In this document: piece after piece, positions 26,210 to 61,840 of the stretch
Numbering within the stretch: the stretch's first letter is position 1
Layout of the letters: every line of letters starts with the position of its first letter
Origin: Candidatus Magasanikiibacteriota bacterium
GTDB taxonomy: Bacteria; Patescibacteriota; Patescibacteriia; Magasanikbacterales; UBA922
Direction: 5' to 3'
Assembly (NCBI GenBank): GCA_041665025.1
Contig: JBAYJP010000004.1
Location: forward strand, 26,311-90,310
Length of the DNA: 64,000 bases
Translations under genes and position numbers: made by a program
Notes under the pieces: generated by a model
Databases searched by the model: none
Seen by the model: only the letters and a program-made list of their open reading frames with translations
What the model was told of the DNA's origin: nothing

Positions 26210-26213
26210 CTAT

Positions 26214-37911: not shown

Positions 37912-37997
37912 AAGTTGTAAAGTTTTGTATATAACTTACAACATTATAACTTTATAACTTGGAACATTATAACTTTACGACTTTAATTATTTTTAGT

Positions 37998-40287: not shown

Positions 40288-40289
40288 TA

Positions 40290-40357
40290 TGTACGAAATT
40301 CGAAAGCTACGAAACATACGAAATTTCGGACCTTTCGCAACTTTCGAATTTCGTACA
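40290..40357. repeat. TACGAAA-family palindromic element (divergent copy)
   Basis: tgtacgaaattcgaaagctacgaaacatacgaaatttcggacctttcgcaactttcgaatttcgtaca. Confidence 0.7.
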
Positions 40358-40387
40358 TAATTTAATTCAGAGTCTAAGGTTTTTCCC

Positions 40388-42622
40388 ATGCTCCCTTGGA
40401 TTCGTTCATCTATACATATATATAAGAAGGCTGTCTTGTCAGTCTGTTTTTTCGTACTAATTTTTGTTGGAATTGGTTTTAATTTCACATCTCATGTTGC
40501 GTATGCACAAGAAGATACGCTTGGTATTGATGTAGTAGAAGACCAAGATCAGGGTAATATTGCGTTGGGGAATGCCGATATTAGAATAGTTGTGGTAAAG
40601 ATTATTCGCGTAGCTTTGGGGTTGCTTGGTATTGTGACCGTGGGTCTTATTGTGTATGCCGGATTTGTTATCATGCTGTCTGGGGGCAATGAAGAGCGCA
40701 TCGCCTATGGTAAAAAGATAATGATCAATGCAGTTATTGGGTTGGTTATTATTTTTTCAGCATTTGCGATTGTTCAGTTTGTTCTCAATGCATTGGGGGG
40801 GCGTACTCAGCAAGGTCCGCCCGGAGGCAGGCGTCCGCCAGGATTGCAGACGTTTTCAGGGAGTGGGGCACTGGGCAGGGTGGTGAAAGATCATTATCCA
40901 TTTCGCGATCAAAATGGGGTTGCGCGCAATACAAGTATTGTTGTTACCTTTGCATTGCCGGTAGATACATCTTCTTTTATTGAAAACAGCAATAACACCT
41001 GTTGGAGCGGGATCAATACCTCGGTGCCATGTGATGCCACTAATAATAGGCCTTATTTTGGAGATTGTTTTGACGCAAATAATGATGGAATGACAAGCTG
41101 GCAGACAGAGTGCGACCGTTTGAACACGTCGACAATTAAAATAGACACTCATGACAAAGTCGACGAGCGTACAGATAGACAATCAGATAGCGCGGGCATT
41201 GGAGCTGCCGCCCTTGCCTCGTATGATGTGGAGGGGAATGCCTATACCTTTGTATTTAAGCCATATGAATATTTGGGAAGTGCTGAGAGAGAAGTTGCAT
41301 ACACAGTTGATTTGGGCGAAGAAATAAAAAAGCAAGGCAAAGACGAGAGCATATTTTCGAGTTTATTTAATAAATTTTATACATGGGATTTTTCAACTGA
41401 CACACGCATAGACCTCGATCCTCCTCATGTAATAGATGTGTACCCCGCGTCTGGGACGACAGAGAAAAAAAATAATATTATACAAATTACCTTTGACGAA
41501 GCAATAGATCCTACGACCGTCCAAGGATATTATACGCCAAATCCAGCTAATGGCTTTGATAATATTTTGGTAAATACTGAAATTGGCGGAGCAGTGGCTA
41601 GTGTAACTGGCACATGGAGCATAACAAATGGCTATCGTACCATTGAATTTATAACAGACAATCCATGCGGGCAAAATAGTTGTGGAGATATGATGTACTG
41701 CCTTGAAGTTGACTGTACCGGACTGGCAGAAAATTGTACAAAACCATATCAGGCGCTTATTCGTACTGCGCAATCAACTCAAAATGCTGATGCGCCATTT
41801 GAGGCAATACCTTTTTCCGGTGTATATGATCTTGCGTTCAATGGTTTGGATAATATAACAAACGAACACATAGCTCCTGATGATCCGCAAAGACTTAATA
41901 AACAGCCAAAAGTTGTTACTCCCTCAAAAAAGGTTGTATATGATTCAGAAAAAAGAGTAGATAACTATTGGTGGGGTTTTAATATTATTAATGAAATTGA
42001 CCGGTCTGCTCCTTATGTTGAAGAGGTTGTCCCTGGAGTTGACGGTCAAGATGTTGCAGAGCGCGATCCGCTCTATATATCATTTTCAAAGCGCATGAAA
42101 TTGTCGACAATGGATAATGTAGAACTTAGAGAACACCCTGAGCGTGTGTGCTTTGACGCCGCATTTGATACATCGACACCAAAAGTCTGTCTTCAGGATG
42201 AACGTATGGACGACATTTGGTTTAAGGTCTTTTCAAATATCATAAATGACAAAACAAAGTCCGAAGTTCGACACCGAGATTTTGGGCCAAACAGCTTGGA
42301 TCTGTATTATTTTCCATCAGTACCAAGTTCAGTAAAGAGCGTAACTCAAAATTGTATTTACCCGGGTTATGGTCCATGGCAACAAAACAGATTGCCAAAT
42401 GGTACGACGCCATCGCCATGCTTAGTTAGCTATGATTCAAATGGAAATGTGACGAGTGCTTCTGGGTGTGTAAATGTATCTGCATCAGTAAGCACCACAG
42501 ATACCGGCTGTGCATATACGTATTTAGACATGACAAGTTCAAGTGATTTACGGCTTTTGAAGCCAGATGTTGCACAATGTCTTGGATATTTAACAACTCA
42601 GAGTGAGAGCCAATATCAATAG
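40388..42622 (+). CDS. VirB2/TrbC-like T4SS-pilin N-terminal module fused to ~600-aa extracellular Ig-like/beta-rich region
   Basis: Signal-like N-terminus, then the pilin-like core VALGLLGIVTVGLIVYAGFVIMLSGGNEERIAYGKKIMINAVIGLVIIFSAFAIVQFVLNALGG, which is paralogous to the N-terminus of the next gene. Confidence 0.6.
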   Translation: MLPWIRSSIHIYKKAVLSVCFFVLIFVGIGFNFTSHVAYAQEDTLGIDVVEDQDQGNIALGNADIRIVVVKIIRVALGLLGIVTVGLIVYAGFVIMLSGGNEERIAYGKKIMINAVIGLVIIFSAFAIVQFVLNALGGRTQQGPPGGRRPPGLQTFSGSGALGRVVKDHYPFRDQNGVARNTSIVVTFALPVDTSSFIENSNNTCWSGINTSVPCDATNNRPYFGDCFDANNDGMTSWQTECDRLNTSTIKIDTHDKVDERTDRQSDSAGIGAAALASYDVEGNAYTFVFKPYEYLGSAEREVAYTVDLGEEIKKQGKDESIFSSLFNKFYTWDFSTDTRIDLDPPHVIDVYPASGTTEKKNNIIQITFDEAIDPTTVQGYYTPNPANGFDNILVNTEIGGAVASVTGTWSITNGYRTIEFITDNPCGQNSCGDMMYCLEVDCTGLAENCTKPYQALIRTAQSTQNADAPFEAIPFSGVYDLAFNGLDNITNEHIAPDDPQRLNKQPKVVTPSKKVVYDSEKRVDNYWWGFNIINEIDRSAPYVEEVVPGVDGQDVAERDPLYISFSKRMKLSTMDNVELREHPERVCFDAAFDTSTPKVCLQDERMDDIWFKVFSNIINDKTKSEVRHRDFGPNSLDLYYFPSVPSSVKSVTQNCIYPGYGPWQQNRLPNGTTPSPCLVSYDSNGNVTSASGCVNVSASVSTTDTGCAYTYLDMTSSSDLRLLKPDVAQCLGYLTTQSESQYQ

Positions 42623-42628: not shown

Positions 42629-45600
42629 ATGAAACAACGCGCACGAACATGGTTTTTTGCTGGGTTATTGACCGCAGTATTTGTTGTTGGTTTTTTCGTG
42701 TTTTTTAATCCCGTGTTTGGCCAGGATACGCTTGGGTTGGATGTTGTGGAAAATGAAGGAGATATCGCGCTTGGTTCAGGAGATTTGCGAGTTACCATAG
42801 TTAGAATCATAAATATTGCGTTGGGTTTACTAGGTATTGTAGCGCTTGGCATTGTCCTGTATGGAGGATTTGTTTGGATGACTGCGGGAGGCAATGAAGA
42901 AAAGGTTGCGACTGCGCGTAAAATTTTAGTAAATGGCACCATTGGGCTTGTCATTATTTTATCTGCATGGACTATTACGTGGTTTGTGTTGAGTAAATTA
43001 ATTGAAGCCACTGGTGGCGGGGGAGGCACAACAGGAGGAGATCGTTGTACGTGTGCAGAACCTCCTGAGAGTGAATGTAGGAAAACAATTGAATGTCGAA
43101 ATTTTTGTACCAGATTTCCTTCGCAGTGCTGTAGCACAGATCATTTTATTGTAAAGAGCATCACACCAAGTACTCCGCAAACAGATCAAGAAATATTCAT
43201 GAATAATCCGGTCATTCGCGTGGTATTTAGTAGAGAAGTGGCAGGCAGTCCAAGCGATGCATTTAAAATTTACAAAAAAGAGGATGGTGGTGTAAACAGA
43301 GATGTCACACAAGATTTTAGTTTTAATTTTGATGGGAATGACACAATTGCTGAAGCCGAGTATGTACAAGGAACAGTGTGTGGCCAACACCAGGGGCATG
43401 ATGTCCATTGTTTGCTCGCAGGCGAATACGAAGTAAAAGTAGGTGATGTGCGTGACAAAGATGGCAACAAGCTTGAAGTCGATACTACATGTGGCAATTT
43501 TCCCAAAGATGCATTATTTAGGACAGGAGATGAAGCAGAACTTGCTATTGATACTCAAGCGCCAAATTTGTCTCAAGTTACCATAGATGGCGGAATTATA
43601 CCAAACGTGCGTTTGGTACAGGGCAGGACATATCCGATAGCGACCACTCTTTCAGATAATCGCGGAAATGCTTATGTACATTTGAATATATATAAAGAAG
43701 GAGACTCTGGAAATAAAATAAGGCAACATATCAATGGTCCTGCAGTATCTATTGGTTCTAGTCCCGCGTTTCCGTTCTTGTATGGTTTCAAAGTTCCTTA
43801 TACTTTAGAGGTTGGACAAACATATGTGGCTGAAGCAGTTGGTAATGACATAGACAATAACACGGTAACGAGCCAGCTCACCTTTAGAGTCATTCCTGTG
43901 AGCTGTGATAATGGCGAACTCGATCCTGGTGAAACGAGTCCTGATGTAGGCGGACCATGCGGAGGGGGAGATGGCGATGCGTGCCGTGTAGACACGGATT
44001 GTTCAAGTTGGCTTAAATGCTTAAATCCGAGTAATCAATTTTGTAGTGCTACAGATACAACATGCGTTTGCAGACCATGGCCATATATTACTGACGTAGA
44101 GTACATGAATGGAGCACAGGGTAATTGGATTACCATATTTGGGCGTAATTTTGGTTATGATCCAGGATTAGTAACATTTGACTATCCTGGTGGACAAAGA
44201 CAAACTGCACCGTTGGCGGAATGTCGGGCGAATGATGTGTGGGAAGACTCGTGGATTATTGCAGAAGTTCCAGAACAGATAACGCCTCAAGCGGCAAAAG
44301 ATCCAGCCCTTGAACTCAATGGAACGGACGCTTACGTGAGCGCACCTTTCAATATTTTTGATTGGGGATTTGAAGACGGTTATTTTTCCCTTGAGTTTTG
44401 GGTCAAACCACCCGCAAATGGAATAATACCTCATACATTACTCGCAGGTACGCAAGAGGGGGGTCAATTTGGAATATTTACTTCTTCAGATGATCTAGGA
44501 AGCGTAGAGGCATGGGTTAGAGATGCTGGGGGTGAATATAATATTGTAGTGGGAGATCCGGGACAACTACTGGGTAATGAGTGGAATCACGTCGTAATGA
44601 CTACTCAAGGTGTTGAAGGCGGAAGTGAAGTAAGATTATATATTAATCATAATTCTTTGGATAAAGAACCATTTACAAGCCAAGGTGCTGGTTTTGAATA
44701 TGTGGAAGCTGAGGAGTTTATTATTGGTTTTTTGGGAGATGATGACTATATGCGGGGCGCTATTGATGAAGTTGCCGTATATGCGGGCGTTTTGACCGAG
44801 GCACAAATAGTAGAACATTATAATGCAAAAAATATAGGAACCATTGAGTCTTATCGAACATTAGTAAACGCTATAGCTCCGCGCGCGTATTGGACATTTT
44901 CTAATTTCCAATCCGGGGATACACAGGTAACTGATATTTCTGGAAATGGATTTCATGGGACATATCATGGGGGTATAGAGGCAGTAAGCGGACCTTTTAT
45001 TTCCAATACGGCAACCGTTGACAAGCCTAGTATTTCTGTGACTACGGCTGGAACAGGATTTACGGATAACACGGACGATGATTTTGGTACTAGACTACCT
45101 TTATTTGAATATAATAGTATTCAGCGTCCGGGGTTATGTAGTGTCACGGTTCCGCGCGATATTGTTCATACATTAGCAGACGGCACTACAGTCACGACTA
45201 CTGCAGGATCGACCAAAGCTCCTCCTGATACGCCCATAGAAGCTGTGGGTAAAGGTTTTGGAAACGCGCGAGGATCTCTTAGTTTTGAAAGTACCAATGC
45301 CGCAGTTGATAGTTGGAGTGAAAATTTAATTTTGTCAGCTGTCCCTATCATGCAAGAGCAGAGGAAGGCAGTTGTGAGAGTTACTGCACCGTCTGGTCAA
45401 GTAAGTAATGGCATTCCTTTTTGGGTAAGTTCTCTTGCAGACATGTATCCTCCTATTATTGAAAGTATTAGCCCATCTTCAACTACAAAAGGAAGCTATA
45501 TTACTATAAAAGGTAAAAATTTTGGAAATAGCGGAATTGTTTATTTTAATACGGACGAAGATATTGGCTGTCCAGGCCAAGGTTGTTTTGCGAGTGCATC

Positions 45601-48600
45601 GTTGCCCGATTATTGCGAAGACACATGGAATGATAATCAAATAATTGCGAAAGTCCCGACAGATGGTTCGTTTATTTTCGGTAACTATCATGTTGTCGTA
45701 GTAAGAGATGACAACCTAAAAGGGGTAAGTAAAGTTGTCGAGAAAGTAACAGATGGAGATCCGCGGCCGAGTATCTGTTACCTTCAGCCGAGTTCTGGGC
45801 CAGCTCCATTGCCAGTGGGACAGTACTTGACCATAAAAGGAGAAAATTTAGATAAAAATGCTAGTGGCAGTGAAATATATTTTTGGAGTCCTCTCTCTAT
45901 TGCAGGAGACATAGCTACCTGGCTGCATACTACCACAAATGATCCAGGATCTTCACGAGTTGTCGAAGGAAAAGAGATCAGGGCATTTATACCTGTTGAT
46001 ACTACTGCGGGATTTACTATGATAACAGGTCCTATTGTGGTCAAGCCTATTGCAAGTAATGTTGTGAGTAATGAGATGATATACAATGTACGGGATTGCC
46101 GCGAATTTGGCACCGGGTCTCTGGTAGGATTTCAGTGTTGTCAGGAAGGTCGTGAAGCGGGCCGATGGAAAAGCAATGCGTTTGTGTGCGAGGGAGGCAG
46201 GCGTGAAGCTGGTTATGCGTGGAGATTTACATCTGGCAAAATTCCTGACAGATTTTTTGTACTGGAACAATGTCAGGACGGCACCATAGTTCCTTCACCC
46301 AGCCCTTGGGCAAACCGACCACAGGGGAATTCGGCATGTTTGAATGCTGAAATTGACTTGGTATTTAGTTTGCCTGTAAAAAAGAGTTCTATAGGAACGG
46401 GCACAGATTTTGAAGAAGGGCTCGACGGAAGCAATATAAAAGTTGAAACATGCGGAAGCGGACAACAAATAGATTGCAGCGCTTCTGCTGATGTTACCTC
46501 AGAATTCAGGCCTGCTTTTACAGAAACATCTGTTGCGATAGCGAGATATCGTGATCAAGATGGAGGTAATATTGATACGCTTACCCCCAATACCTGGCAC
46601 CGTGTTTCTTTGAAAGAAACGGTGACATCGGCCCATTCTGAAAATATACTTGGCGTCCAAGAAGAAAGAAATGAAAATTTGGTTGCGACCCGTCCGTGCG
46701 AAAGTAATGATGGTTCTTCCTTCGCCTTTTGTTTTGAGTTCAAGACTGGTGCTCCGGGTACTATATGTACATTGAAAGATGCTTTGATTGACCCGCCACG
46801 GAAGACGACCAATCTCTTGGGTGTCGTCCAAGATGATGCTTTTCCCCGTATGTATGATATTACACGGATATTTAACCCGGGAACTCCTGGATTGAATCCC
46901 TTGTATTATATGGTGAGAGGAGTAGCCAATCAGGAATGTACGACAATAAATGTAGATAGCAAGCCTTGGATCTGGGGCCCAACTGATCCTCCGGTAACAG
47001 GCTCTGTTCCTGCGACAAGTGAAAAGAGAGCCCGAGGAAGATATGTAAATAGCCGTGGTATTGCAAAAGCATGGGAAGACTGGCCGCAAGGGTATAATAT
47101 ATTTGCGACTACTCCTGAAAATGTGAGCAGTACCATTGTCGTGAGTAGGGAGAGCGACACTATTGAGAGGCTTACCAAGCTTCCTGATCCTACTATAATA
47201 CCCGCTGGTTTTGGACGTTCAGTTGAATTTTCTCCAGATGGCAATTATCTCGCCGTAGGTCATGATGTGGCACCTTTCATTTCTATGTACAGACGAAACG
47301 GTGACACATTTACCAAACTCGATATCCCATCAGGACCAACTCAGTGGATAGTAAGCATGGATTTTTCTTCGGATGGTGTGTATTTGGCAGTATTGCAGCA
47401 AATTCCCCCTTTTGTGACCATGTATAAACGAAATGGTGATACGTTTACCAAACTAGCCACTCCCAGCCCAAGTAATTGGTCTGGAAGTAGCAGAGGATGG
47501 ACTATTGATTTTTCTCCAGATACAAATTATTTAGCTATTGCTCAGGAAACCAGTCCATATATCACTATATATCATAGAAGCGGAGATACGTTTAGCCGAG
47601 CAAATGATCCAGACATTTTGCCCACAGGAAGTGGTAAGGGTGTGACTTTTTCTCCGGATGGAAATTATATGGCAACGTCTTTTGCCGTATCACCTTATTT
47701 AACTGTCTATAAGAGAAATGGTGATGCTTTTGTAAAGCTCGAAAATCCTTCACCTTTGCCGACAGATGGTGCTCGAGGTGGAATTGCATTTTCACCAGAT
47801 AGCAATTATCTAGTCTTGACAACCCACGGGTCGACAAACATTATGTTTTATAAGAGAAATGGTGACGCATTTACGAGGATAGCCGATAATGTGGATCAAC
47901 TTCCTCTCCTTGGCTTTCGCGTTGACTTTTCTCCGGATGGTTCATATGTGGTAGTTTCACATGGCTCTTTTTCTTCCACACCTTTTTTTAGCTTCTACAG
48001 GCGAGACAATGATGCCATTACCAAGATAAATACCTTTGTCCCATCAACACCGGTAAATGGCGCATCGGATGTGGCATTTTCTCCCAATTCACAATATGTA
48101 GCAGTGGCTCATACTATAACGCCGTTTTTAAGTATTTATAAAATAGCATATAGAATGGGTGCGTCAACGGTAGAAACTTTCGATACCACAGTGATTACCG
48201 CCACAAGTACGTTGCATATAGATCTTACCCATCCCCAAGTCGTAAGCAAATGGCCATCATGTATTGAGGCATGCGTAAATGCAGAAATAGGGGCTCAATT
48301 CAATCAGATAATGGATAAGACAACGTTTACTACTGATAATGTTCATCTATATAGGTGTAGTGATGAGACATGCACCGTCACGTCAACGGCGTCAATTAGC
48401 CCTGGCAGTCATGACGACAACATTCTTCGTTTTTATCCCCAAGGACTTCTCACATCAAGCACCTGGTATCTAGTTGAGCTAACTTCTGGAATCAAGGGTG
48501 TGAGCGGAGTAGATCCAAGCGGCAGGGCGTTACAAGATAATAGAGGAAAATCTATTGAAAGGACGACTTGGAAATTCCGTACCAAGCCATCATCTGAACC

Positions 48601-51600
48601 ATGTGTTGTTGACACTGTTGACGTGCGTCCTGATCCATTTACGGCAACATTTATTGGCCAGCGCCAGCGATATAGCGCGGTTCCGAAAGGTGCTCCAGAT
48701 AGCTGTAATCCACGGGGACAATTTTTAAATCCATGGGATTATGGATGGAATTGGTATGTGCGCGATTCAGCTGTAGCAAGTTCAAATTCAACTATTGCGA
48801 CCACAACTAATTTTGGATTTTCTGGAAATATAAACAGGGCGTGTGGCCTCAATTGTATTCCAACAGGAAGTGACGTTCCACAGGGGACATATACAGGCGT
48901 CTATCCTGTTTGTGGGAATGGTAGAGTAGAACTTGGAGAAGATTGCGATATAGCAAGCACAACGCCGAGTGGTGCAAATGAAAATCACGGCATTAGCTGC
49001 GCCTATAATTGTTTGAGGTTGGGAAACTCAAACAAAGGTAATGGGGCAAACCAGTGCGGAAACGGAGTTGTGGAAGAAATAAGAGGAGAAGAATGCGATC
49101 CCAATAATTTGGATTCAAATTTTGTTCCGTATAAACTATTTTGTACTGATACATGTGTATGGACGGGGTCTTCGGTAGAAGCTACGGGGAATCCCACAAC
49201 GCCTATATGTGGCAGTGGGAGTGTGACACCAGGCGAGGATTGTGATGGGACACTAGGTTGTTCTACACGCTGTCTCAATACAGGTACGCCACTTTCTCAA
49301 GCATGGTGCGATACTCATAAAAATGATAATGACAAAACATACGAACTATGTCCGTATGCGACAAGCGTCTGCGGAAATGATATTGTTGAAAATGGCGAAG
49401 AATGCGACCCTATAGGTAATCAGAGTGTTGCCTATTGTACAGATAGATGCCTGCTCGTCAATGTATGCAATGAGCCAACAAAAAAACAATGTGATCCTGA
49501 AGATGATGAAGGTTGTTCACCAGATTGTACGTGGGCAGGTTCATCTATTGAATATTCAACTCCATCGTTATGCGGCGATGGCCAAGTCGGTATTGGCGAG
49601 TATGCGGGTTGTGAAATAACTCCAGATGAAGCACGAAGCCAATTGGGAGGAAATCCAGTTCAGCTGGTAACAGCAATTGGTGAACCGCCTGCAGGTGCAT
49701 CCTCTGTTGTACCACTTGATTCTCTGGAAACATTTGTGTTTGCTGATCCTGAAAGAATTAGATTCTCTCCTGCATCCATTGGCAATGTGACAAGTACGAT
49801 AAGAGGACAGGGGGATTATGAATTACAATGTGGATACACGGAAAATATTTCCTCAGGCCAAGATATCGGGAGCACGACAGTAGTTTTTGAGGAATTTGCA
49901 TCAAACCATGACATGTTTGTATTGGATAAAGCAGACGACGGAATATATGTATTGGATGTACTTTTAAATGATTTTGGCCAGCAGCTAGACATTTTGAGCG
50001 TAGCAGCAAGTGACGAGCTCGTAAAAGTATCCGTTATCACCGAAGATGAGATCGAGAAGCTTCATGTTGAAGTTCCTGCAGAAATTACACAAGTAAACCT
50101 TGAATACGAAGTAAAAGATATTGCAACGGGGGAGCAGGAAAGCGCACAGGTTGCTTTACATATACATAATGATGTTGCTAATGTTTTTCGTTCCATTGTC
50201 TTTGATAATTTTGATTTGGATGATTTCAAAGAGGGTGATGTTGTTGCAATTCATGTTGATAAACTTGACACATTCCGTGTCCCTCCCGGAATTGACCCTT
50301 ACACAATCACAGAAGTCTCTGATGTTTCTTCAATTGTCGGTAGTCTATTACCCAATGTTCAACTTGATATAAGTCTGCTACCAGGACATGAAGTTTTTGA
50401 TATTACAGAAAGTTCAGGAACAGCGGGAATATTATCTTTTGATTTTAGTGCTAAACGGGGTGATGATACGTTTACGGGGAAAATTTTTATAAATATCAAA
50501 AGAAAACGTGTGGTTGCGTCAGAGACAATAGAACAAACGCAATCTGTATATAATGATTGTTCGCCTAACCCTGGAAATATATATGGCGTGGCAAAAAATT
50601 CATGCTGTGTGCTCCGCCCAGAGCGCGTAGACCAGTATCCGGCAGCAAACGCGGGCATAGATGGCAGTGAACCAGTATGCCGCAATACCTATTTAGAGGT
50701 ATCATTTGATAAATTCATGGACAGCACTTCTTTCGATAGAGGCAGTTACAAAGTAAATGATCTGGTGAGGTTTTTTGATAATGCGTATGTGGTCGAGGGA
50801 TATGAAGTCGCAGCATACCCGAATTTCAATTGTGAAAGCCAGGGTATGGTGGACGTGTCCGAGGACATGAGTCGTCTGACCGGTTCAATAGCGCCTACCG
50901 GGCATGTCAGTTTTTTGAAAAAGATATGGAATTCTATAAAATTATTTTTTGTCCGATTATTTACGGGCGATGTATTTGCGGTTGATGAAAACAACCAGCT
51001 TACGGGCAGGACCATTAGGTGGTGTTATAGCAACAATACATTGGATCCTCGTGTCAGGTATGAACTCAATGAAACGGGAGTGGTGAGCACAAGTACCGCG
51101 GCATTATATCTTGATAATGCACTGCCCCCCAATGTGTATGTGGCGGTTATGTTGCGCGGTGGACAAGATGGAGTGCGCGATATAAATGGGGTAGGTATCA
51201 AAAATCCGCACAGCACGAGTCGTACTGATTTTTGGATGTTCAAGACGGGCAGTGAGATTTGTAAAATTGATAGTGTGAGTGTCGATCCTGCAACGCAGAT
51301 GTATCAAGAACCTGGAGATGAACATACATTTCATGCTCAGGTACTAAGCAAACGAGCGCAACAAATAGTGTCCACGCCGGCTTATGTATGGGAGTATATC
51401 TGGCATCCACAAAATCCAGTGTTTGATATTCCAAAAGTGACCACCCCTCCCACTAGTCCAAATACTCCAGATATCACTATCCAAAATAAAGGTGTTGAAG
51501 GACTTATAAATGCCATAGCCGAAGTAAAAGTAACGTATGATGCAGATAGCGAAGACAATCACACAGGTAAAAAATTTAATGGGCTATTTGAATTAAACGC

Positions 51601-54600
51601 ATTTTTCTGTGCGAACCCGTGGCCTTCTACAGGTGAATATTTTCAGGATGATTATTATAATTTCCGTACCCGCTATTGTGCTGACGCAGAAAATCCTTTG
51701 TATGATTTTGATGACTTGCCTCTTCTCCAGACAGGCATTAATCCATCTGAGGCCATTACCGCGTCAGGTACGCTTGAAAAGGTGTTATTTTTCAATCCAA
51801 AAAATGATGATGTTATTGGCATACAAATATTTTTAAATCCACCCGATGAATTGACGGGTTTGCGCCGTACGCTGGGTGATTGGTATTCAGATAGATTTGA
51901 AGATCTGGGTAATATGAGGAGAGTGAGTGTAGACGGAAATGAAGCTTTGACAGATGGAAGAAATTATTATGTAAACGCATACAATGTCACGTCTACGGGG
52001 ATGTACAACAATGTCTATTTGTTTAGTATCAATGAGGGCGCACAGCCAGAAACGCAAAAAGTATTTGATCAAATTATTGCATCGCTCCAGTTCAATACAA
52101 ATTTACGCGATATTAACAAATGTCTTGATGCTGATGGCGACTTGAGAGGGAGTAGCAGTGAGAGGATTTCAATTGCAAACCCGGAAATTGATTGTACGAC
52201 AGACATTGATTGTATCAATGACAATGGACAAGCAAAATTGAATGTACATCCAAGTGGCATATGTGCCAATGAAAAGACCAAATTTTTTAGGGACATCAAA
52301 CGCCTTGAAGATTTGAAAATCACGCAGTCCAAGCTTGATGGATATTTTGCAGGCAATGTATTTGGCGCTGACTTCAAAGCAGATTTGCAAGGCGGATCAT
52401 ATATTCCTGGCTATACTAATTCACGGTGGCTCTCATGGGGTACGCTGGCAGGTTTGGTAAATGGACTGACTGTTGACCCTATCAATGATTGGCGCGGGTG
52501 TTCCCCCAATGATTCACTTACATGCTGGAACGCGGCAAGTTCGACATTCAGGTGTCCTCAGTTTGCGCAAGTGTATGAATATGCATTTGTAAGTACGACA
52601 TTAGGGTATAATATTTATGCTCCGTTTGAATACATGGACGCTAGTGATGACATTGTCGAACAATTTGTAGATACTTCCCGCATTAGACTGGGGCAAAGAT
52701 GGTGTACGCCAGCCACCGTATATACACCATTCCAAGGTACATGCGGAGATGGCATTCTCAACCCTTCAAGCGAGCAGTGCGAACCCCCAGGAAGAGAGAG
52801 AGTTACGTATCAAGTTGTTGATGGTGGCAGAACGAGTTCATGTCCAGCGGGTCAATTTGCGACCTCTACATGCAGTCAGACATGTCAGTGGACATACAGC
52901 GCTTGCCATGTTGCAGCTCAAAATTGTGGCGATGGAGAAATACAAGGTAGTGAGGCATGTGATGATGGAAATAAAAATGGGACATATGGGTATTGCAATA
53001 GTACGTGTTTGGATCTACATCCTGAGTATTGTGGAGATAATGTATATCAGAGCGGAAAAGAATTTTGTGAGAGAGTCGCAGAAGTTTCAGTTGCGTTTCC
53101 AATTGCTGGAAAGAAAGTGAGACTTAATTTGGGCGAGTCTATGGCGAATCTTGAATCCATGAATGCTACAGATTTTCTAAATACATACTGTAGTCATTAT
53201 GAGACGGATTTTGAAAGAGGTATTTGTAATGTTCTTTTTGTACTAGTTTATACGTATGTGGATCGTTTTGTAAATGATATAGACAATTTTAATTATCGTT
53301 GCAGCGGTGATTCTACACTTATCTGTAATCCGGATGAAGGTTTGGGTCCGAGCAATCCAAATGCAGGATGTCGTGCTCCTAGTGCGACTGCCATGGCTTA
53401 TCTGGATAATTTAGACATAAATGATGTAGTAACAAACGTGGCAACCACAACATTAAATGATTATGGATATTGTAGAGAATATGCGCTTGGCAATTTTGGT
53501 ACTCCTTATAATCACGAAAGGGATTTGACGTGTTCGTGGAACTGCCAGTCATATGGCGCGTACTGTGGTGATGGCGTCAGACAGCCACAATATGAACAGT
53601 GTGATGATGGTAATACCAATGATCGCGATGCGTGTACCAACGATTGCATGGTCCATGTCAATCCAGACTTATGCGGGAATGGAAGTGTTGACGTGGGAGA
53701 ACAATGTGATGATGGAAATACAATAAATAGTGACAGTTGTTTAAATTCGTGCGTAATAAGAACGGATGAACCTCGTTGCGGAGATGGTGAACGTCAGCCG
53801 GAAATAGGTGAGGAGTGTGATTTGGCAAATCAAAATGGAGTTGCCTGCAGTGCAAATGGCTATAATGAAAAATGCGTGTATTGTTCGCTTGATTGCAAGA
53901 GTATTACTGTTGAGTCTGCAAAAAAATGCGGAAATGGAAGAATTGATTATGACGCACAAAATAGACCTTACGAAAAGTGTGATTTTGTTCAGTCTGGTGG
54001 CCGACAAACAAGGATATTTACCACATCAACTCCTCCTAACAGCCGTGAAACTACATGTGTTGACCAGTTGGGCCCTGTCGAATATCCGGATTTCAATGAA
54101 GTACGCGGTTCTTTGAAATGCAGTCCAGATTGCCTGACACTTGATACTTCTGATTGTGTTGAATGTGGAGTGAGAAAATTTGTAAATGGAGCACAGACAC
54201 CTTACATTTCAGTCATCAACGTGCTGACGGGTAAGGATACGCGTAATGGGGTATGGGGTAGCGAAACGCATTTAGGCTTATACTCCAACCGGACGAGTGG
54301 AAGACAATATGTTGCCTCTCGAAATTTAGGTGCTACTCCGTACAATCCACAGCGTATCGCTTATGGGAATGGTCTTTCGGATATGAGTGATGATGAAGAT
54401 GATCCTGTAGCTGGGATCGATACAAACGTCAAATGTAATAAGTATACAGACGTACAATCAAACACTTTTGAACATTATTACCAGTTATATTTTAATAGTG
54501 GCCGTACAGGAACAGATCGAGTACGTGGCGGAACTTACTTTGATTATATAGTTAATAATGAGACAACAAATATAGAACGTGAATTGTTTGTTTCTCCTGC

Positions 54601-55234
54601 CCTGCCGACATCTATGTTGAGGATTGCTGTGCGTGCTTCAAGAGAGAATCAACCATCTGATGCTCGATTTGTGGGTGGTTTTTATGCTGATGGAATAGGG
54701 CAGGTTTTATATCCCGTGGGCAGTGCCGGCGTTGGAGTACGATGTAGAATGATAGAACAGGGTGCACAAGAATATTGGCTTCCATCTGCTGGTTGCAATA
54801 CTGTTTTAAATAACATTTGGATTCACGACCTCGTTAACACTGACTCAAATAGGGTTCAATCATTTACTTTTTCGGACGGTATTTTCGAACTGCTACAACC
54901 AGACAAACCAGTAGCATTTTATGTCCAAGCTCTGGAAGGTCCTATTTATCAATTTAAGAACTATGATGTGTGGGTTGAAATATATGAATATCATGAAGGA
55001 CAAAATCCCGCGTATTCTATATATGCACCGACTCGTACATTTTATCTCAACCGAACTGGATCGAGCAGTACCAATCAATCGGCGCGATATTGGCATGTAT
55101 TCACTTTAAGAAAACAAGGCACGCAGTATGTTGTCGAAACTCCAGGTGGAGAAAATGGTTCTATAGAGACCGACATGTGCCGCATCAGGGCCAATATGCC
55201 AAATACTACCCAATGTACAACAGGAAGGACTTAA
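42629..55234 (+). CDS. giant (4201 aa) surface protein: VirB2-like pilin module + Cys-rich linker + IPT-like + LamG + 8-blade beta-propeller + Myxococcus-type Cys-rich repeats
   Basis: The ORF is uninterrupted for 12.6 kb. The N-terminal ~130 aa are paralogous to the upstream gene. The LamG-like block is EFWVKPP...YINHNSL...DEVAVYAGVLT. There are eight FSPDGNYLA...Y(K/R)RNGD.FTKL repeats and more than 12 CG(D/N)G....C(D/E) repeats. Confidence 0.65.
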   Translation: MKQRARTWFFAGLLTAVFVVGFFVFFNPVFGQDTLGLDVVENEGDIALGSGDLRVTIVRIINIALGLLGIVALGIVLYGGFVWMTAGGNEEKVATARKILVNGTIGLVIILSAWTITWFVLSKLIEATGGGGGTTGGDRCTCAEPPESECRKTIECRNFCTRFPSQCCSTDHFIVKSITPSTPQTDQEIFMNNPVIRVVFSREVAGSPSDAFKIYKKEDGGVNRDVTQDFSFNFDGNDTIAEAEYVQGTVCGQHQGHDVHCLLAGEYEVKVGDVRDKDGNKLEVDTTCGNFPKDALFRTGDEAELAIDTQAPNLSQVTIDGGIIPNVRLVQGRTYPIATTLSDNRGNAYVHLNIYKEGDSGNKIRQHINGPAVSIGSSPAFPFLYGFKVPYTLEVGQTYVAEAVGNDIDNNTVTSQLTFRVIPVSCDNGELDPGETSPDVGGPCGGGDGDACRVDTDCSSWLKCLNPSNQFCSATDTTCVCRPWPYITDVEYMNGAQGNWITIFGRNFGYDPGLVTFDYPGGQRQTAPLAECRANDVWEDSWIIAEVPEQITPQAAKDPALELNGTDAYVSAPFNIFDWGFEDGYFSLEFWVKPPANGIIPHTLLAGTQEGGQFGIFTSSDDLGSVEAWVRDAGGEYNIVVGDPGQLLGNEWNHVVMTTQGVEGGSEVRLYINHNSLDKEPFTSQGAGFEYVEAEEFIIGFLGDDDYMRGAIDEVAVYAGVLTEAQIVEHYNAKNIGTIESYRTLVNAIAPRAYWTFSNFQSGDTQVTDISGNGFHGTYHGGIEAVSGPFISNTATVDKPSISVTTAGTGFTDNTDDDFGTRLPLFEYNSIQRPGLCSVTVPRDIVHTLADGTTVTTTAGSTKAPPDTPIEAVGKGFGNARGSLSFESTNAAVDSWSENLILSAVPIMQEQRKAVVRVTAPSGQVSNGIPFWVSSLADMYPPIIESISPSSTTKGSYITIKGKNFGNSGIVYFNTDEDIGCPGQGCFASASLPDYCEDTWNDNQIIAKVPTDGSFIFGNYHVVVVRDDNLKGVSKVVEKVTDGDPRPSICYLQPSSGPAPLPVGQYLTIKGENLDKNASGSEIYFWSPLSIAGDIATWLHTTTNDPGSSRVVEGKEIRAFIPVDTTAGFTMITGPIVVKPIASNVVSNEMIYNVRDCREFGTGSLVGFQCCQEGREAGRWKSNAFVCEGGRREAGYAWRFTSGKIPDRFFVLEQCQDGTIVPSPSPWANRPQGNSACLNAEIDLVFSLPVKKSSIGTGTDFEEGLDGSNIKVETCGSGQQIDCSASADVTSEFRPAFTETSVAIARYRDQDGGNIDTLTPNTWHRVSLKETVTSAHSENILGVQEERNENLVATRPCESNDGSSFAFCFEFKTGAPGTICTLKDALIDPPRKTTNLLGVVQDDAFPRMYDITRIFNPGTPGLNPLYYMVRGVANQECTTINVDSKPWIWGPTDPPVTGSVPATSEKRARGRYVNSRGIAKAWEDWPQGYNIFATTPENVSSTIVVSRESDTIERLTKLPDPTIIPAGFGRSVEFSPDGNYLAVGHDVAPFISMYRRNGDTFTKLDIPSGPTQWIVSMDFSSDGVYLAVLQQIPPFVTMYKRNGDTFTKLATPSPSNWSGSSRGWTIDFSPDTNYLAIAQETSPYITIYHRSGDTFSRANDPDILPTGSGKGVTFSPDGNYMATSFAVSPYLTVYKRNGDAFVKLENPSPLPTDGARGGIAFSPDSNYLVLTTHGSTNIMFYKRNGDAFTRIADNVDQLPLLGFRVDFSPDGSYVVVSHGSFSSTPFFSFYRRDNDAITKINTFVPSTPVNGASDVAFSPNSQYVAVAHTITPFLSIYKIAYRMGASTVETFDTTVITATSTLHIDLTHPQVVSKWPSCIEACVNAEIGAQFNQIMDKTTFTTDNVHLYRCSDETCTVTSTASISPGSHDDNILRFYPQGLLTSSTWYLVELTSGIKGVSGVDPSGRALQDNRGKSIERTTWKFRTKPSSEPCVVDTVDVRPDPFTATFIGQRQRYSAVPKGAPDSCNPRGQFLNPWDYGWNWYVRDSAVASSNSTIATTTNFGFSGNINRACGLNCIPTGSDVPQGTYTGVYPVCGNGRVELGEDCDIASTTPSGANENHGISCAYNCLRLGNSNKGNGANQCGNGVVEEIRGEECDPNNLDSNFVPYKLFCTDTCVWTGSSVEATGNPTTPICGSGSVTPGEDCDGTLGCSTRCLNTGTPLSQAWCDTHKNDNDKTYELCPYATSVCGNDIVENGEECDPIGNQSVAYCTDRCLLVNVCNEPTKKQCDPEDDEGCSPDCTWAGSSIEYSTPSLCGDGQVGIGEYAGCEITPDEARSQLGGNPVQLVTAIGEPPAGASSVVPLDSLETFVFADPERIRFSPASIGNVTSTIRGQGDYELQCGYTENISSGQDIGSTTVVFEEFASNHDMFVLDKADDGIYVLDVLLNDFGQQLDILSVAASDELVKVSVITEDEIEKLHVEVPAEITQVNLEYEVKDIATGEQESAQVALHIHNDVANVFRSIVFDNFDLDDFKEGDVVAIHVDKLDTFRVPPGIDPYTITEVSDVSSIVGSLLPNVQLDISLLPGHEVFDITESSGTAGILSFDFSAKRGDDTFTGKIFINIKRKRVVASETIEQTQSVYNDCSPNPGNIYGVAKNSCCVLRPERVDQYPAANAGIDGSEPVCRNTYLEVSFDKFMDSTSFDRGSYKVNDLVRFFDNAYVVEGYEVAAYPNFNCESQGMVDVSEDMSRLTGSIAPTGHVSFLKKIWNSIKLFFVRLFTGDVFAVDENNQLTGRTIRWCYSNNTLDPRVRYELNETGVVSTSTAALYLDNALPPNVYVAVMLRGGQDGVRDINGVGIKNPHSTSRTDFWMFKTGSEICKIDSVSVDPATQMYQEPGDEHTFHAQVLSKRAQQIVSTPAYVWEYIWHPQNPVFDIPKVTTPPTSPNTPDITIQNKGVEGLINAIAEVKVTYDADSEDNHTGKKFNGLFELNAFFCANPWPSTGEYFQDDYYNFRTRYCADAENPLYDFDDLPLLQTGINPSEAITASGTLEKVLFFNPKNDDVIGIQIFLNPPDELTGLRRTLGDWYSDRFEDLGNMRRVSVDGNEALTDGRNYYVNAYNVTSTGMYNNVYLFSINEGAQPETQKVFDQIIASLQFNTNLRDINKCLDADGDLRGSSSERISIANPEIDCTTDIDCINDNGQAKLNVHPSGICANEKTKFFRDIKRLEDLKITQSKLDGYFAGNVFGADFKADLQGGSYIPGYTNSRWLSWGTLAGLVNGLTVDPINDWRGCSPNDSLTCWNAASSTFRCPQFAQVYEYAFVSTTLGYNIYAPFEYMDASDDIVEQFVDTSRIRLGQRWCTPATVYTPFQGTCGDGILNPSSEQCEPPGRERVTYQVVDGGRTSSCPAGQFATSTCSQTCQWTYSACHVAAQNCGDGEIQGSEACDDGNKNGTYGYCNSTCLDLHPEYCGDNVYQSGKEFCERVAEVSVAFPIAGKKVRLNLGESMANLESMNATDFLNTYCSHYETDFERGICNVLFVLVYTYVDRFVNDIDNFNYRCSGDSTLICNPDEGLGPSNPNAGCRAPSATAMAYLDNLDINDVVTNVATTTLNDYGYCREYALGNFGTPYNHERDLTCSWNCQSYGAYCGDGVRQPQYEQCDDGNTNDRDACTNDCMVHVNPDLCGNGSVDVGEQCDDGNTINSDSCLNSCVIRTDEPRCGDGERQPEIGEECDLANQNGVACSANGYNEKCVYCSLDCKSITVESAKKCGNGRIDYDAQNRPYEKCDFVQSGGRQTRIFTTSTPPNSRETTCVDQLGPVEYPDFNEVRGSLKCSPDCLTLDTSDCVECGVRKFVNGAQTPYISVINVLTGKDTRNGVWGSETHLGLYSNRTSGRQYVASRNLGATPYNPQRIAYGNGLSDMSDDEDDPVAGIDTNVKCNKYTDVQSNTFEHYYQLYFNSGRTGTDRVRGGTYFDYIVNNETTNIERELFVSPALPTSMLRIAVRASRENQPSDARFVGGFYADGIGQVLYPVGSAGVGVRCRMIEQGAQEYWLPSAGCNTVLNNIWIHDLVNTDSNRVQSFTFSDGIFELLQPDKPVAFYVQALEGPIYQFKNYDVWVEIYEYHEGQNPAYSIYAPTRTFYLNRTGSSSTNQSARYWHVFTLRKQGTQYVVETPGGENGSIETDMCRIRANMPNTTQCTTGRT

Positions 55235-55243: not shown

Positions 55244-55657
55244 ATGAATTTAAAAAAAACTGTTATACTATTTAGTGTGGGTGTTCTCCTTGTGCTGTTG
55301 GGGACAGGTCTATGGTTTTTTGTATCTCGTGGAAAGAAAATTGTTACTGATAAACAAGATAAGGACGGAACAGCTTCGTCCACATCGCAAGGAACTATTA
55401 CAACTACAGACATACCTGAATGGTATGCAACTGACAAAGACGCGGATGGTATAGAAGATACAAAAGAAGATGAATTGGGATTAGATAAATGGGCAGCTGA
55501 TACTGATGGAGATGGGATTTCTGACTTTGTAGAAATCAATGAATTCAAGACAGACCCAAGAAATCCTGATACGGACGGTGATGGTTTTTGGGATGGAGTT
55601 GAACTTGAAAGTGGATATAATCCACTAGGAGAAGGGAAACTTATAACTTCAAGTTGA
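55244..55657 (+). CDS. TM-anchored protein with thrombospondin-type-3-like DxDxDG calcium-binding repeats
   Basis: N-terminal TM, then DKDADGIEDTKEDE, DTDGDGISD and DTDGDGFWDGVE repeats. C-terminal GYNPLGEGKL. Confidence 0.6.
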   Translation: MNLKKTVILFSVGVLLVLLGTGLWFFVSRGKKIVTDKQDKDGTASSTSQGTITTTDIPEWYATDKDADGIEDTKEDELGLDKWAADTDGDGISDFVEINEFKTDPRNPDTDGDGFWDGVELESGYNPLGEGKLITSS

Positions 55658-55758
55658 AGTTATAAAGTTCCAAGTTATAAAGTTGTAAAGTTCATAAAAT
55701 ATTTGTTACTTTCAACTTTATAACTTTATAACTTTATAACTCTATAACTCTATAACAT

Positions 55759-56661
55759 ATGTTCGACGACGTTCAACCAAAAAAATCAGGACAAGTTCCA
55801 GGGAATTTACCCATTACAGAACCAGAAGATATTTTTTCTGGAGCAGACGTGCAGCTTGATGATATATCAGCACCTCAACCTGCTGCCCCTACGTCTGCAC
55901 TGGATGCAGGAGTCCTCAAACCGCGTCAACCAATTTCAAATATGTCAGAAATGGCGCCAGTGGCTATGCCTCCTGTTGCACCGCCACGCGTAAATACATT
56001 TCAAGAACAAATTCCGCCAGTTGGGCCTGCGCCTGAGGTACAAAATTCTCCATATCAACCGCCTGTGAATAATGACCCACGTTTTGTCGTACCTCCTCAA
56101 CAAATGGGTGGGGATCCTTCAGCCTACACGGTAAAAGAGCCTCTGGGAAGTAAAAAAGCAATTTTATGGATTATTATCGGAGTTATCGTGATTGTGCTTG
56201 GAGCTGGCAGTGCGTGGATGTACTTTACATTTATCCAAAATGGTGGAAATACAGATTTAGATAATGGAGATATAACAAATGAAAATATTACTCCTGATGA
56301 AAATACAAATGTTGTTCCCATAAACACGACACAACCAGATAATGCAGATCAAGGAGATACCGCGAACACACAGGTAGATATTGACCAAAGTATTTTGTTT
56401 GGCCAGCCAATTGATACTGATGGCGATGGTCTTGATGATGTACGTGAAGCAGATTTGAACACCGACCCCTTGAATTGGGATAGTGATGGCGATGAGTTGT
56501 CTGATGGGGACGAAGTGACGATATGGAAAACAGATCCGCTTGATAGTGATAGTGATAACGACGGATATGGAGATGGTGCTGAAATAAAGAATGGGTATAG
56601 TCCGACTGGCTCGGGCAAATTATTTGAAGTGCCAACAACCACAGAATCGGCTGTGCAATAA
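55759..56661 (+). CDS. paralogous TM protein with Pro-rich region and DxDxDG repeats
   Basis: Central TM, then DTDGDGLDDV, DSDGDELSDGDE and DSDSDNDGYGDG repeats. C-terminal GYSPTGSGKL is parallel to the upstream gene. Confidence 0.6.
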   Translation: MFDDVQPKKSGQVPGNLPITEPEDIFSGADVQLDDISAPQPAAPTSALDAGVLKPRQPISNMSEMAPVAMPPVAPPRVNTFQEQIPPVGPAPEVQNSPYQPPVNNDPRFVVPPQQMGGDPSAYTVKEPLGSKKAILWIIIGVIVIVLGAGSAWMYFTFIQNGGNTDLDNGDITNENITPDENTNVVPINTTQPDNADQGDTANTQVDIDQSILFGQPIDTDGDGLDDVREADLNTDPLNWDSDGDELSDGDEVTIWKTDPLDSDSDNDGYGDGAEIKNGYSPTGSGKLFEVPTTTESAVQ

Positions 56662-56665
56662 AATT

Positions 56666-56715
56666 ATGTACGAAATACGAAAACTGCGAAAGGTACGAAA
56701 AAATATATTTCGTGT
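56666..56715. repeat. TACGAAA-family element (partial)
   Basis: tgtacgaaatacgaaaactgcgaaaggtacgaaaaaatatatttcgtg. Confidence 0.5.
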
Positions 56716-56728
56716 ATATAATTAATGT

Positions 56729-57910
56729 ATGTTTTTCAAAAAAAAGACGCCAAAAAATCTATTACCCAAACCAGAACCAGACGTTCATGTCATTAGTATT
56801 CCTGATGTTTTTTATGGTGGAAAAGATCCTGAGATATATCATGCGCCATCGGGTGATGTGGGTTCTAAAAAAGATGCCAAGCAGATGCAAACAAGAAATT
56901 TTCAAAGTGGTGCCGGACAAAAAAGTTTTCTATCCAAAAAGAGTACGTGGATAATTGGGGGCACAGTGTTTGTCGTCGTCATTTCCGGAATTTCTTGGTA
57001 TTATGTGCGCGGTTATATGAATGCTCGTCTAGTTACCAATACCGAAGAAAACACACAAACAAATGGGGCACCTCCTACGAGTATTCCCTCTATAGTTGTA
57101 CCCACATCCACTGCTGAAATAGTAGAAAACCAGACGCCCACAAGTACACAGCCAGTTGAGATACCTACGACCACTCTCGATGCGGCTAATATACAATTTC
57201 CTGTAGTAACACTTATTGATAGTGCTGATGTTGACTCAGATGAACTAACCGACGCAGAAGAAGAATTTTTTGGTACTGATAGCGGCACGTGGGACACTGA
57301 CAAGGATAGTTTCTATGATGGTCAGGAGGTCTTCAATTTATATAATCCCAGAGGTTTTGCACCAATAAAAATCATTGACTCAGGTGTAATTCAGGAGTAT
57401 GCGAATCCTTTTGTAGGTTACCGTGTGTACTATCCAAAAGGTTGGCAAAAGGGTGCCGTAGACGTGAAAGAATCCCAGGTATTATTTAGCGCTTTGCTGG
57501 GTGATTATATTGAAATTAGGGTGTTTGAAAAAGATCCGGTCATTGATTTTACCACATGGTTTGGGAGAAATGCGGAAGGTCAACAATTCACTGATCTTGT
57601 GAAAATAACAAATCGTTTTAAGGAGGAGGGATGGAAAAGAAAGGATAATTTGGTCGCATATTTTATTTCTCCTACGCGCGTGTATGTGTTTGTATACCAT
57701 TCGTCGGAACGAGGACCTATCGAGTATCGCCATATTATACAGATGATGTATCAGAGTTTTCGTATGCAAAAGTCTGACATCGATATTCCAGACCAAATAT
57801 TGCCTCCGGGTATGACAACAAGTACAACTACATCCACAGTCAACACAGATATCCTGGTTACTTCAACACCAAATAATACCGTGACGAGTTCCACGTCAGT
57901 TAATTTGTAG
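56729..57910 (+). CDS. third paralogous TM protein with acidic DxD repeats and C-terminal beta domain
   Basis: TM at about aa 70, then DSADVDSDELTDAEEEFFGTDSGTWDTDKDSFYDGQE, then an unrelated C-terminus. Confidence 0.5.
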   Translation: MFFKKKTPKNLLPKPEPDVHVISIPDVFYGGKDPEIYHAPSGDVGSKKDAKQMQTRNFQSGAGQKSFLSKKSTWIIGGTVFVVVISGISWYYVRGYMNARLVTNTEENTQTNGAPPTSIPSIVVPTSTAEIVENQTPTSTQPVEIPTTTLDAANIQFPVVTLIDSADVDSDELTDAEEEFFGTDSGTWDTDKDSFYDGQEVFNLYNPRGFAPIKIIDSGVIQEYANPFVGYRVYYPKGWQKGAVDVKESQVLFSALLGDYIEIRVFEKDPVIDFTTWFGRNAEGQQFTDLVKITNRFKEEGWKRKDNLVAYFISPTRVYVFVYHSSERGPIEYRHIIQMMYQSFRMQKSDIDIPDQILPPGMTTSTTTSTVNTDILVTSTPNNTVTSSTSVNL

Positions 57911-60290: not shown

Positions 60291-60509
60291 AGTTAGAGGG
60301 TGGTTTGCGTTGCAGAGTAAAAGAAAAAGAACTTCATAGTATACAAATTGTATTCAATTCCTTGACACATGTTTTTATAATCGTTACACTAATACCATCA
60401 AAAAGTTTTTGAATAGTTTATTTGTATAATGAACAAAAATAGTGTTCAAATAAATTTTTTTCTCTAAACTTTATAACATTATAACTTTAAAATTTTTAAC
60501 TATCACTTT

Positions 60510-61799: not shown

Positions 61800-61840
61800 A
61801 CGAAGTTGAAAGTTGTAAAGTTAAAAGTTATAAAGTTGAC

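Follow-up and report, generated by a model that had tools for sequence, protein, structure and literature searches.

One of the questions raised by this locus is what an ultra-small bacterium does with a single protein of 4201 amino acids (aa), and on which side of its membrane the protein works. The window, i.e. the whole stretch of 64,000 nucleotides that was analyzed, comes from a Candidatus Magasanikiibacteriota bacterium (contig JBAYJP010000004.1), and the giant gene lies at 42629-55234 on its forward strand. To our knowledge, little is understood of the way in which ultra-small Patescibacteria locate a partner and stay attached to it, except in a few cultured Saccharibacteria, and we know of nothing on partner finding in the Magasanik-, Falkow- and Uhrbacteria-type lineages, which dominate groundwater. 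The original prediction, made from the sequence alone, described the giant as a lectin, propeller and cysteine-repeat protein of the surface-recognition type. Here we find that its defining features are a VirB2-like pilin module, a conserved scaffold of ~3300 aa and a conserved operon, while the lectin, the propeller and a third, acidic block are lineage-specific, interchangeable inserts at three hot spots of this scaffold. It is probable, though far from certain, that the giant is a membrane-anchored modular recognition or adhesion protein, whose cassettes bind external ligands that are probably located on the surface of a partner cell.

The giant open reading frame (ORF) is real, and the uninterrupted 4201-codon frame that had been described stands: it starts with ATG and has zero internal stops. 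The identical protein is deposited as MFA6427633.1 ('LamG-like jellyroll fold domain-containing protein', from Candidatus Magasanikbacteria), and contigs that encode exactly these 4201 aa come from NCBI, JGI, ENA and Logan; they fall into four contig-length blocks of the index, of which three were read, and reach up to 321.6 kb. As the source is a metagenome-assembled genome and the ORF is very long and contains repeats, one might suspect an assembly or annotation artefact, in which repeats collapsed or adjacent genes were fused. However, the DNA repeats inside the gene are diverged only (the propeller blades are 60-74% identical, at a spacing of 135-150 nt), and a DNA repeat scan found no long tandem repeats or arrays in it. 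In addition, homologues of dozens of species are collinear with the giant from the pilin module to the C-terminal domain, which is kept in frame in 98 of 149 homologues. Because the same protein occurs in several public assemblies, with diverged repeats and collinear homologues, a frameshift, fusion or collapse is very unlikely, to the point of being negligible. Scans for promoters and terminators gave scores no better than those of shuffled sequence. The protein carries 132 Cys and has a size of ~455 kDa, as estimated from its amino acid count. Its parts, found with Pfam and NCBIfam/TIGR domain profiles and with family hidden Markov models (HMMs) for extra TIG and Cys-repeat copies, are as follows.

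42629..55234, + strand: giant ORF, 4201 aa (MFA6427633.1); ORF list and database identity
42629..42721, + strand: signal peptide, aa 1-31, with a hydrophobic core and a predicted cleavage site at ...NPVFG/QDTLG; sequence and hydropathy
42722..43003, + strand: VirB2-like T4SS_pilin module, aa 32-125; PF18895 match and homology
43004..43138, + strand: Gly-rich linker and 7-Cys knot, aa 126-170; sequence
43139..44287, + strand: conserved N-module, aa 171-553, with a TIG-like end at aa 485-553; homologue coverage and TIG-family HMM
44318..44809, + strand: cassette 1, Laminin_G_3/ConA-like lectin, aa 564-727 (whole insert aa ~556-800); Pfam
45026..46978, + strand: conserved block 2, aa 800-1450, containing a TIG domain (aa 942-1025) and a Big_5-like domain (aa 1229-1337); Pfam, HMM and homologue coverage
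47165..48208, + strand: cassette 2, seven-bladed beta-propeller, aa ~1513-1860; repeats, Pfam, homology and PHROG 19311
48221..49600, + strand: conserved block 3, with a Big_5 immunoglobulin (Ig)-like domain at aa 1865-1963, a linker and Cys-rich acidic array 1 at aa 2069-2324 (5 units); Pfam and TIGR02232
49826..50548, + strand: cassette 3, acidic block of ~240 aa, aa 2400-2640; homologue coverage and junction size
50561..52738, + strand: conserved block 4, aa 2645-3370, with Ig-like beta-sandwiches, a PsbP/Mog1/LpqN-like alpha/beta domain and a helix-plus-sheet domain
52739..53947, + strand: Cys-rich acidic array 2, aa 3371-3482 and 3645-3773, with a variable segment between them; TIGR02232
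54578..55210, + strand: conserved C-terminal beta-sandwich, TerD-like by fold only, aa ~3984-4194

The signal peptide and the T4SS_pilin (PF18895) hairpin, which together take up aa 1-125, had been overlooked. Hydropathy analysis shows hydrophobic segments at aa 5-32, 53-88 and 93-125, and the pilin module consists of two hydrophobic helices with the short charged loop GGNEEKVATARK between them. PF18895 matches aa 55-117 with 35.8 bits (cut-off 26.6), and the pilin-like model NF045849 matches the N-terminus below its cut-off. Hundreds of free-standing PF18895 pilins of 110-140 aa from Magasanik-, Falkow- and Buchananbacteria (Patescibacteria), some of which also match TrbC/VirB2 (PF04956), share 45-66% identity with the N-terminal 135 aa of the giant, and the module is 57% identical to that of the 744-aa gene lying upstream. 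With a PF18895 match above cut-off, a signal peptide and a two-helix hairpin, the first 125 aa are the same module as in the VirB2-like pilins described in Patescibacteria (Quinonero-Coronel et al., 2025, PMC12102498; Wang et al., 2023, PMC10633639). Those pilins, however, are small (~110-240 aa) and often arrayed near virB4, whereas in the giant ~4070 aa follow the module, the locus is a housekeeping one and the VirB4-like ATPase is 23 kb upstream. The class III signal peptide/N-methylation motif (IPR012902, G/FTLxE) is absent from the N-terminus (MKQRARTWFF...NPVFGQDTLG), which has no Pfam N_methyl match. Apart from the giant and the adjacent 744-aa gene, no carrier of this pilin module was found in the 64-kb window. 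In one Magasanikbacteria GW2011 genome (L081:3134-11353) an 11-gene tandem array of PF18895 pilins of 121-377 aa was observed, with a gene like bAvd, an accessory protein family of diversity-generating retroelements, ~1 kb upstream (L081:1838-2206) and no reverse transcriptase in the stretch shown.

VirB2 and TraA propilins are placed in the membrane with both ends of the hairpin outward and the loop toward the cytoplasm. Because of this topology, the ~4070 residues that follow the hairpin are predicted to be extracellular, and we infer that the giant is almost certainly displayed outside the cell. The signal peptide, the outward C-terminus of the hairpin, the 132 Cys and the content of Ig-like, TIG, Big_5, lectin and Cys-repeat domains all fit such a display.

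What does this putative ectodomain carry? Right after the hairpin, there is a Gly-rich stretch, EATGGGGGTTGGD, and behind it a group of seven Cys (aa 140-168; nt ~43004-43138), in agreement with the hinge and Cys knot that had been placed at about 43000-43150. Three blocks had been called IPT-like: the TIG domain at aa 942-1025 is above the Pfam cut-off, an HMM of that domain matches aa 485-553 (nt 44081-44287) with an i-E of 2e-11, and for the third (aa 1047-1084) the match is weak and partial (i-E 0.002). A Pfam rescan of sub-regions added a weak extra TIG at aa ~865-932 and nothing else. The concanavalin-like block expected at about 44330-44840 is a Laminin_G_3 domain (E 3.5e-17; 63.4 bits against a cut-off of 27.6; profile positions 1-150 of 151). 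The propeller fold also holds, but as seven units of 45-50 aa (135-150 nt) and not as the eight units of ~40 aa that had been counted; the FSPD...Y(K/R)RNGDxFTKL units are found at aa 1534, 1579, 1628, 1674, 1721, 1767 and 1817. A leading half-unit, DTIERLTKL, probably closes the ring, since it resembles the DTFTKL strand motif. Most Pfam propeller models are below their whole-protein cut-offs and the Lactonase model is above (27.3 against 21.7). The lectin is assigned by its profile match, the propeller also by its seven repeats and its homology.

Both predicted arrays of CG(N/D)G Cys repeats were confirmed. The CG(N/D)G...E.CD repeats match TIGR02232 with 62 bits (cut-off 20.8) in three stretches, at aa 2069-2324 (5 units), 3371-3482 and 3645-3773, with ~10 units by the family HMM; DUF4215 is below cut-off on them. 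The region at 49640-52700 that had been left unassigned does exist, yet it is heterogeneous: it joins a rarely shared acidic stretch (aa ~2400-2640) to a block (aa 2645-3370) that is conserved more strongly than any other in the family. The acidic cassette has no Pfam match, and its resemblance by eye to bacterial cadherin-like domains ('VLDVLLNDFG') was dropped for want of profile support. Structure models were made for the two largest unknown blocks only, block 4 and the C-terminal domain, with homologue subsequences from the HMMER search as alignment rows, and the folds seen are Ig-like/S-layer-like, PsbP/Mog1-like and TerD-like only. When block 4, the C-terminal part of that block and the C-terminal domain were compared with the PDB by sequence and by profile, nothing meaningful was matched.

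How widely is this architecture shared? In an exhaustive HMMER search with aa 2330-3375 as the query, cluster representatives were counted at two thresholds, giving 1166 at E<1e-3 and 985 at E<1e-10. With few exceptions their length is 3000-5000 aa, and they align to aa ~2635-3375 only. The N-terminal 557 aa, scanned against one genome per species, found 176 stretches. Every record with an informative name comes from the patescibacterial lineages Falkow-, Uhr-, Magasanik-, Komeili-, Buchanan- and Kerfeldbacteria, apart from a small number labelled Gammaproteobacteria, Chlamydiae or Kapaibacterium, apparently by mistake. The homologues are named in databases as 'hypothetical protein' or 'IPT/TIG domain-containing protein', and because of these generic names the family appears to be unnamed. 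An alignment of the giant with 149 representatives shows the following coverage of its blocks.

aa 1-130, pilin module: covered in 114 of 149
aa 131-555, N-module: covered in 105 of 149
aa 565-730, lectin: covered in 13 of 149
aa 800-1450, block 2: covered in 121 of 149
aa 1525-1840, propeller: covered in 1-2 of 149
aa 1850-2400, block 3: covered in 133 of 149
aa 2400-2635, acidic block: covered in 7 of 149
aa 2640-3370, block 4: covered in 143 of 149
aa 3370-3860, second Cys array: covered in 106 of 149
aa 3870-4201, C-terminal domain: covered in 98 of 149

The scaffold is conserved in the family, while the lectin and propeller are rarely shared. The three junctions where they and the acidic block reside measure 275, 420 and 260 aa in the giant; their median lengths in the family are 39, 71 and 35 aa. 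Other members have inserts at the same three junctions, which belong to several mutually unrelated sequence families, and some of those at junctions two and three are Laminin_G_3 domains. A different set of inserts is carried even by the nearest relative (P0002), which is 50% identical in block 4. Because the inserts differ at the same junctions, even in this relative, they are best described as interchangeable cargo in a conserved carrier. The surface-recognition type that had been proposed fits the extracellular-type domains, the lectin and the propeller, but the emphasis on these last two was misplaced.

In ~10 related species the giant is encoded by two adjacent ORFs (L020, L030, L041, L057, L061, L067, L073 and L078; e.g. 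L030:2975-9076 and 9090-11918). There, an N-part contains block 2, a C-part of ~600-1200 aa begins before block 4, and the gap between the two is 10-30 nt. This split is probably a genuine two-gene version and not a sequencing error, since it recurs across related species.

The propeller cassette has relatives outside the family. It is 35-47% identical over >90% of its span, with E values down to 5e-135, to stand-alone propeller proteins of 400-610 aa from many bacteria, and it matches PHROG 19311 at 2.5e-25. Some Paenibacillus proteins annotated 'tail fiber protein' combine the PF03406 tail-fibre repeat with a C-terminal seven-bladed propeller of the same FSPDGxYLA...Y(K/R)RNGDTFTKL blades (40% identity over 315 aa). 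By database names, the cassette is grouped with modules at the receptor-binding end of phage fibres. Unlike in a phage tail fibre, the propeller of the giant is an internal insert of a cellular protein and not the distal end of a fibre, and the function of the phage-associated propeller is itself an annotation only.

The giant is one gene of a conserved operon, of which the other members in the window are:

40388..42622, + strand: upstream paralogue of 744 aa with the same pilin module and Big_5; its stop lies 6 nt before the ATG of the giant
55244..57910, + strand: three single-pass membrane proteins of 137, 300 and 393 aa; the first starts 9 nt past the stop of the giant

Outside the shared pilin module the 744-aa protein is unrelated to the giant, and of 70 loci, 57 have an orthologue of its type directly 5' of the giant. 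By Pfam, Ca-binding TSP3 repeats are found in the proteins of 137 and 300 aa, whilst that of 393 aa shows only a D-rich motif that looks similar by eye, and a PsbP match that is weak and below threshold; downstream of the giant, these membrane proteins are conserved in 15-25 loci. Other species repeat the gene order lepB-hisS-yqeY-[pilin-744]-[giant]-[TSP3 genes]-ybeY-dagK-ftsA-ftsZ, and across related loci the neighbours include HisRS in 55, LepB in 48 and YqeY in 43. With operon and chromosomal position conserved in roughly 50-60 species, comparison of these loci indicates a vertically inherited core locus and not a mobile element. A role as target of a diversity-generating retroelement was rejected: no template/variable-type repeat involves the giant, and no reverse transcriptase is present among the ORFs scanned in the window.

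A Patescibacteria-type type IV secretion system (T4SS) cluster is located at 12938-19452. Two of its genes are:

15800-16231: PrgI/VirB3-like gene, T4SS cluster
16323-16739: PD-(D/E)XK nuclease gene, T4SS cluster

Its virB4 (16783-19452) is apparently split into an N-terminal ORF of 228 aa (16783-17469, weak TraC match) and an ATPase ORF of 626 aa (17572-19452). Intergenic copies of a palindrome of ~84 nt, ATGTACGAAATACGAAAACTACGAAA...TTTCGTACCTTTCGCAGCTTTCGTATTTCGTACAT, which reach 98% identity to one another, are present at 6505-6578, 14785-14822, 15715-15798, 16229-16312, 16744-16786, 17482-17565, 26209-26252, 36319-36354, 40283-40366 and 56657-56744. This repeat is found between genes of the T4SS cluster, including between the two parts of VirB4, just ahead of the 744-aa pilin gene, and in the gap that separates the genes of the 300-aa and 393-aa membrane proteins, and it may be an element of the REP (repetitive extragenic palindromic) kind, a terminator or a shared regulatory site. 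A second intergenic repeat family, AAGTTATAAAGTT / TTATAACTTTATAACTT, is located at 20487-20524, 25483-25550, 37929-37987, 55655-55754, 60453-60494 and 61808-62007, with one cluster between the first two TSP3 genes.

Several other features of the window were also observed. Directly upstream of the T4SS cluster, a 1678-aa ORF (7878-12914) has no Pfam match and no relative in 79 related loci; its region (8-12 kb) has an unusual composition, with an AT skew of 0.34 and a GC of 0.42-0.44. Just downstream of the cluster, a leucine-rich-repeat protein of 455 aa (20443-21810) adjoins a 448-aa protein (21844-23190), and the two genes have a common 114-nt repeat (20559-20672 and 21837-21950, 81% identical); both proteins are further candidates for surface proteins. 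Three tandem tRNA-Ser genes are located on the minus strand at 25288-25642; for the one at 25392-25481 ARAGORN gives the unusual anticodon ACT, and the GCT copy scores low in Rfam (41 bits). A secreted protein with a CAP/SCP domain (733-2019) is followed by an IS200-like Y1 transposase ORF (1988-2593), the sole mobile-element signature seen in the window.

Based on these data, the following mechanism can be suggested. After Sec export and cleavage of the signal peptide, the VirB2-like hairpin would remain in the membrane with a cytoplasmic loop and an outward C-terminus. From it, the ~4070 residues would extend outward as an elongated chain, stabilised by disulfides, in which Ig-like, TIG and Big_5 sandwiches are combined with 4-Cys acidic repeats and whose scaffold of ~3300 aa is common to the large, vertically inherited family. 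The three fixed junctions would serve as slots into which different lineages insert different binding modules, here a ConA-like lectin, a seven-bladed propeller of the tail-fibre type and an acidic domain. Such cassettes would most likely bind glycans or proteins on the surface of a partner or host cell, or another substrate, and the giant would probably act together with the co-operonic 744-aa pilin-anchored paralogue and the Ca-binding TSP3 membrane proteins. We therefore regard the giant as a good candidate for a partner-cell recognition molecule, with a putative role in cell-cell contact.

Several observations weigh against this reading. Lectin and propeller folds are no proof of binding, and 'tail fiber protein' is a database name with no experiment behind it. 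No fold is assigned to the acidic cassette, to the N-module or to a large part of block 2. At the ~10 related loci with a split giant, the distal part need not be covalently anchored. Finally, the strict conservation of the scaffold and its neighbourhood of housekeeping and division genes fit a constitutive role in the envelope equally well. One possible option is thus that the giant is a scaffold or S-layer-like component of the envelope, e.g. of a canopy or a division-associated structure, whose inserts bind the wall polymers of the cell itself. Those ~50-60 species have kept both the scaffold and the place of the operon beside ybeY-dagK-ftsA-ftsZ, Ca-binding TSP3 membrane proteins are co-encoded, and the best structural matches of the block 4 model are the S-layer proteins Sap, SbsC, SbsB and EA1. 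Yet these matches reflect generic tandem Ig-like sandwiches, with TM-scores of just 0.12-0.16 over the query, and Pfam finds no SLH or other S-layer anchoring domain; a 455-kDa protein with a membrane hairpin is also atypical of lattice-forming S-layer subunits. As the rapid swapping of the lectin and propeller cassettes, together with the tail-fibre-annotated kin of the propeller, points to a changing external ligand, we hold an envelope component to be rather unlikely.

Another hypothesis places the giant on a pilus. The T4SS would extract its VirB2-like module and co-polymerise it with free-standing pilins, so that the ectodomain caps or decorates the pilus as a tip adhesin, a T4SS counterpart of modular type IV pilins, VirB5 or PilY1. 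The 45-66% identity of the module to free-standing pilins argues for this, as do the 11-gene pilin array of a related genome, the T4SS cluster of the window itself (PrgI/VirB3-like protein and VirB4-like ATPase) and the precedent of modular type IV pilins, in which binding modules are grafted onto a pilin (PMC8179133). Many Patescibacteria have VirB2-like pilins, which are reported to be essential in Southlakia, and adhesins such as PrgB were not reported in a survey of Patescibacteria T4SSs (PMC12102498, PMC10633639, PMC12857230). However, the giant gene is outside the T4SS cluster, 23 kb from virB4 and among housekeeping genes, a free-standing pilin of its type was not found within the 64-kb window, a load of 4070 C-terminal aa would fit at the tip only, and a T4SS pilus has not been demonstrated in any Patescibacterium. 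A pilus-borne tip adhesin is for these reasons quite unlikely. The same low probability applies to the further idea that the family is the missing adhesin of the essential Patescibacterial T4SS, a 'modular VirB2 pilin' at the pilus tip whose three cassettes set which host can be docked; if it were true, host range would be readable from the genome. Giant size and N-terminal export signals also bring to mind a secreted or contact-delivered toxin or lytic enzyme, like polymorphic toxins or the giant predatory proteins of Omnitrophota, and giant genes of other ultra-small bacteria were linked to cell-wall degradation (10.1101/2023.11.21.568195). Such a role is highly improbable, as no catalytic fold or toxin domain was found in Pfam, NCBIfam and PDB profile searches or in the two structure models, the C-terminus is conserved rather than polymorphic, and no immunity-like gene follows the giant ORF.

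It is known that Candidate Phyla Radiation (CPR) bacteria have giant surface proteins, as it is known that Patescibacteria have VirB2-like pilins. Giant surface proteins with adhesion-type domains are routinely reported in CPR genomes (e.g. PMC13059738), and for very large ones a role in host recognition was proposed (Absconditicoccaceae, PMC13059738; Vampirococcus, PMC8080830). Like these proteins, the giant is predicted to be exported and has Ig-like repeats and lectin/ConA-type modules; unlike other giant adhesins, it has a VirB2-like hairpin anchor, a distinct conserved scaffold and three defined insertion slots. Searches in Pfam and NCBIfam found no RTX/type I secretion (T1SS) signal, autotransporter domain or LPXTG motif, and the C-terminus ...NMPNTTQCTTGRT is without LPXTG. 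Modular type IV pilins such as PilB and PilC of S. sanguinis likewise put C-terminal binding modules, including ConA-like lectins (PF13385), on a small pilin carrier (Raynaud et al., 2021, PMC8179133). Their largest cited member has 860 aa, against 4201 aa here, and the pilin of the giant is a VirB2-type hairpin that lacks their class III signal peptide and N-methyl motif. In the literature, of which our coverage was incomplete, the survey of Patescibacteria T4SSs included, we found no description of the pilin-giant fusion, nor any of the size and conservation of the family or of the three-slot architecture.

What can be learned from this family is, to begin with, that conservation is lowest in just those domains that catch the eye of a reader first, i.e. 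the lectin and the propeller. With its scaffold, its pilin-type anchor and its three exchange slots, the family gives a concrete, phylum-scale candidate for partner recognition, and the anchor ties it, at least evolutionarily, to the essential T4SS pilins. It can now be tested whether the type of cassette follows host or habitat, and whether VirB2-like pilins may serve as carriers of cargo.

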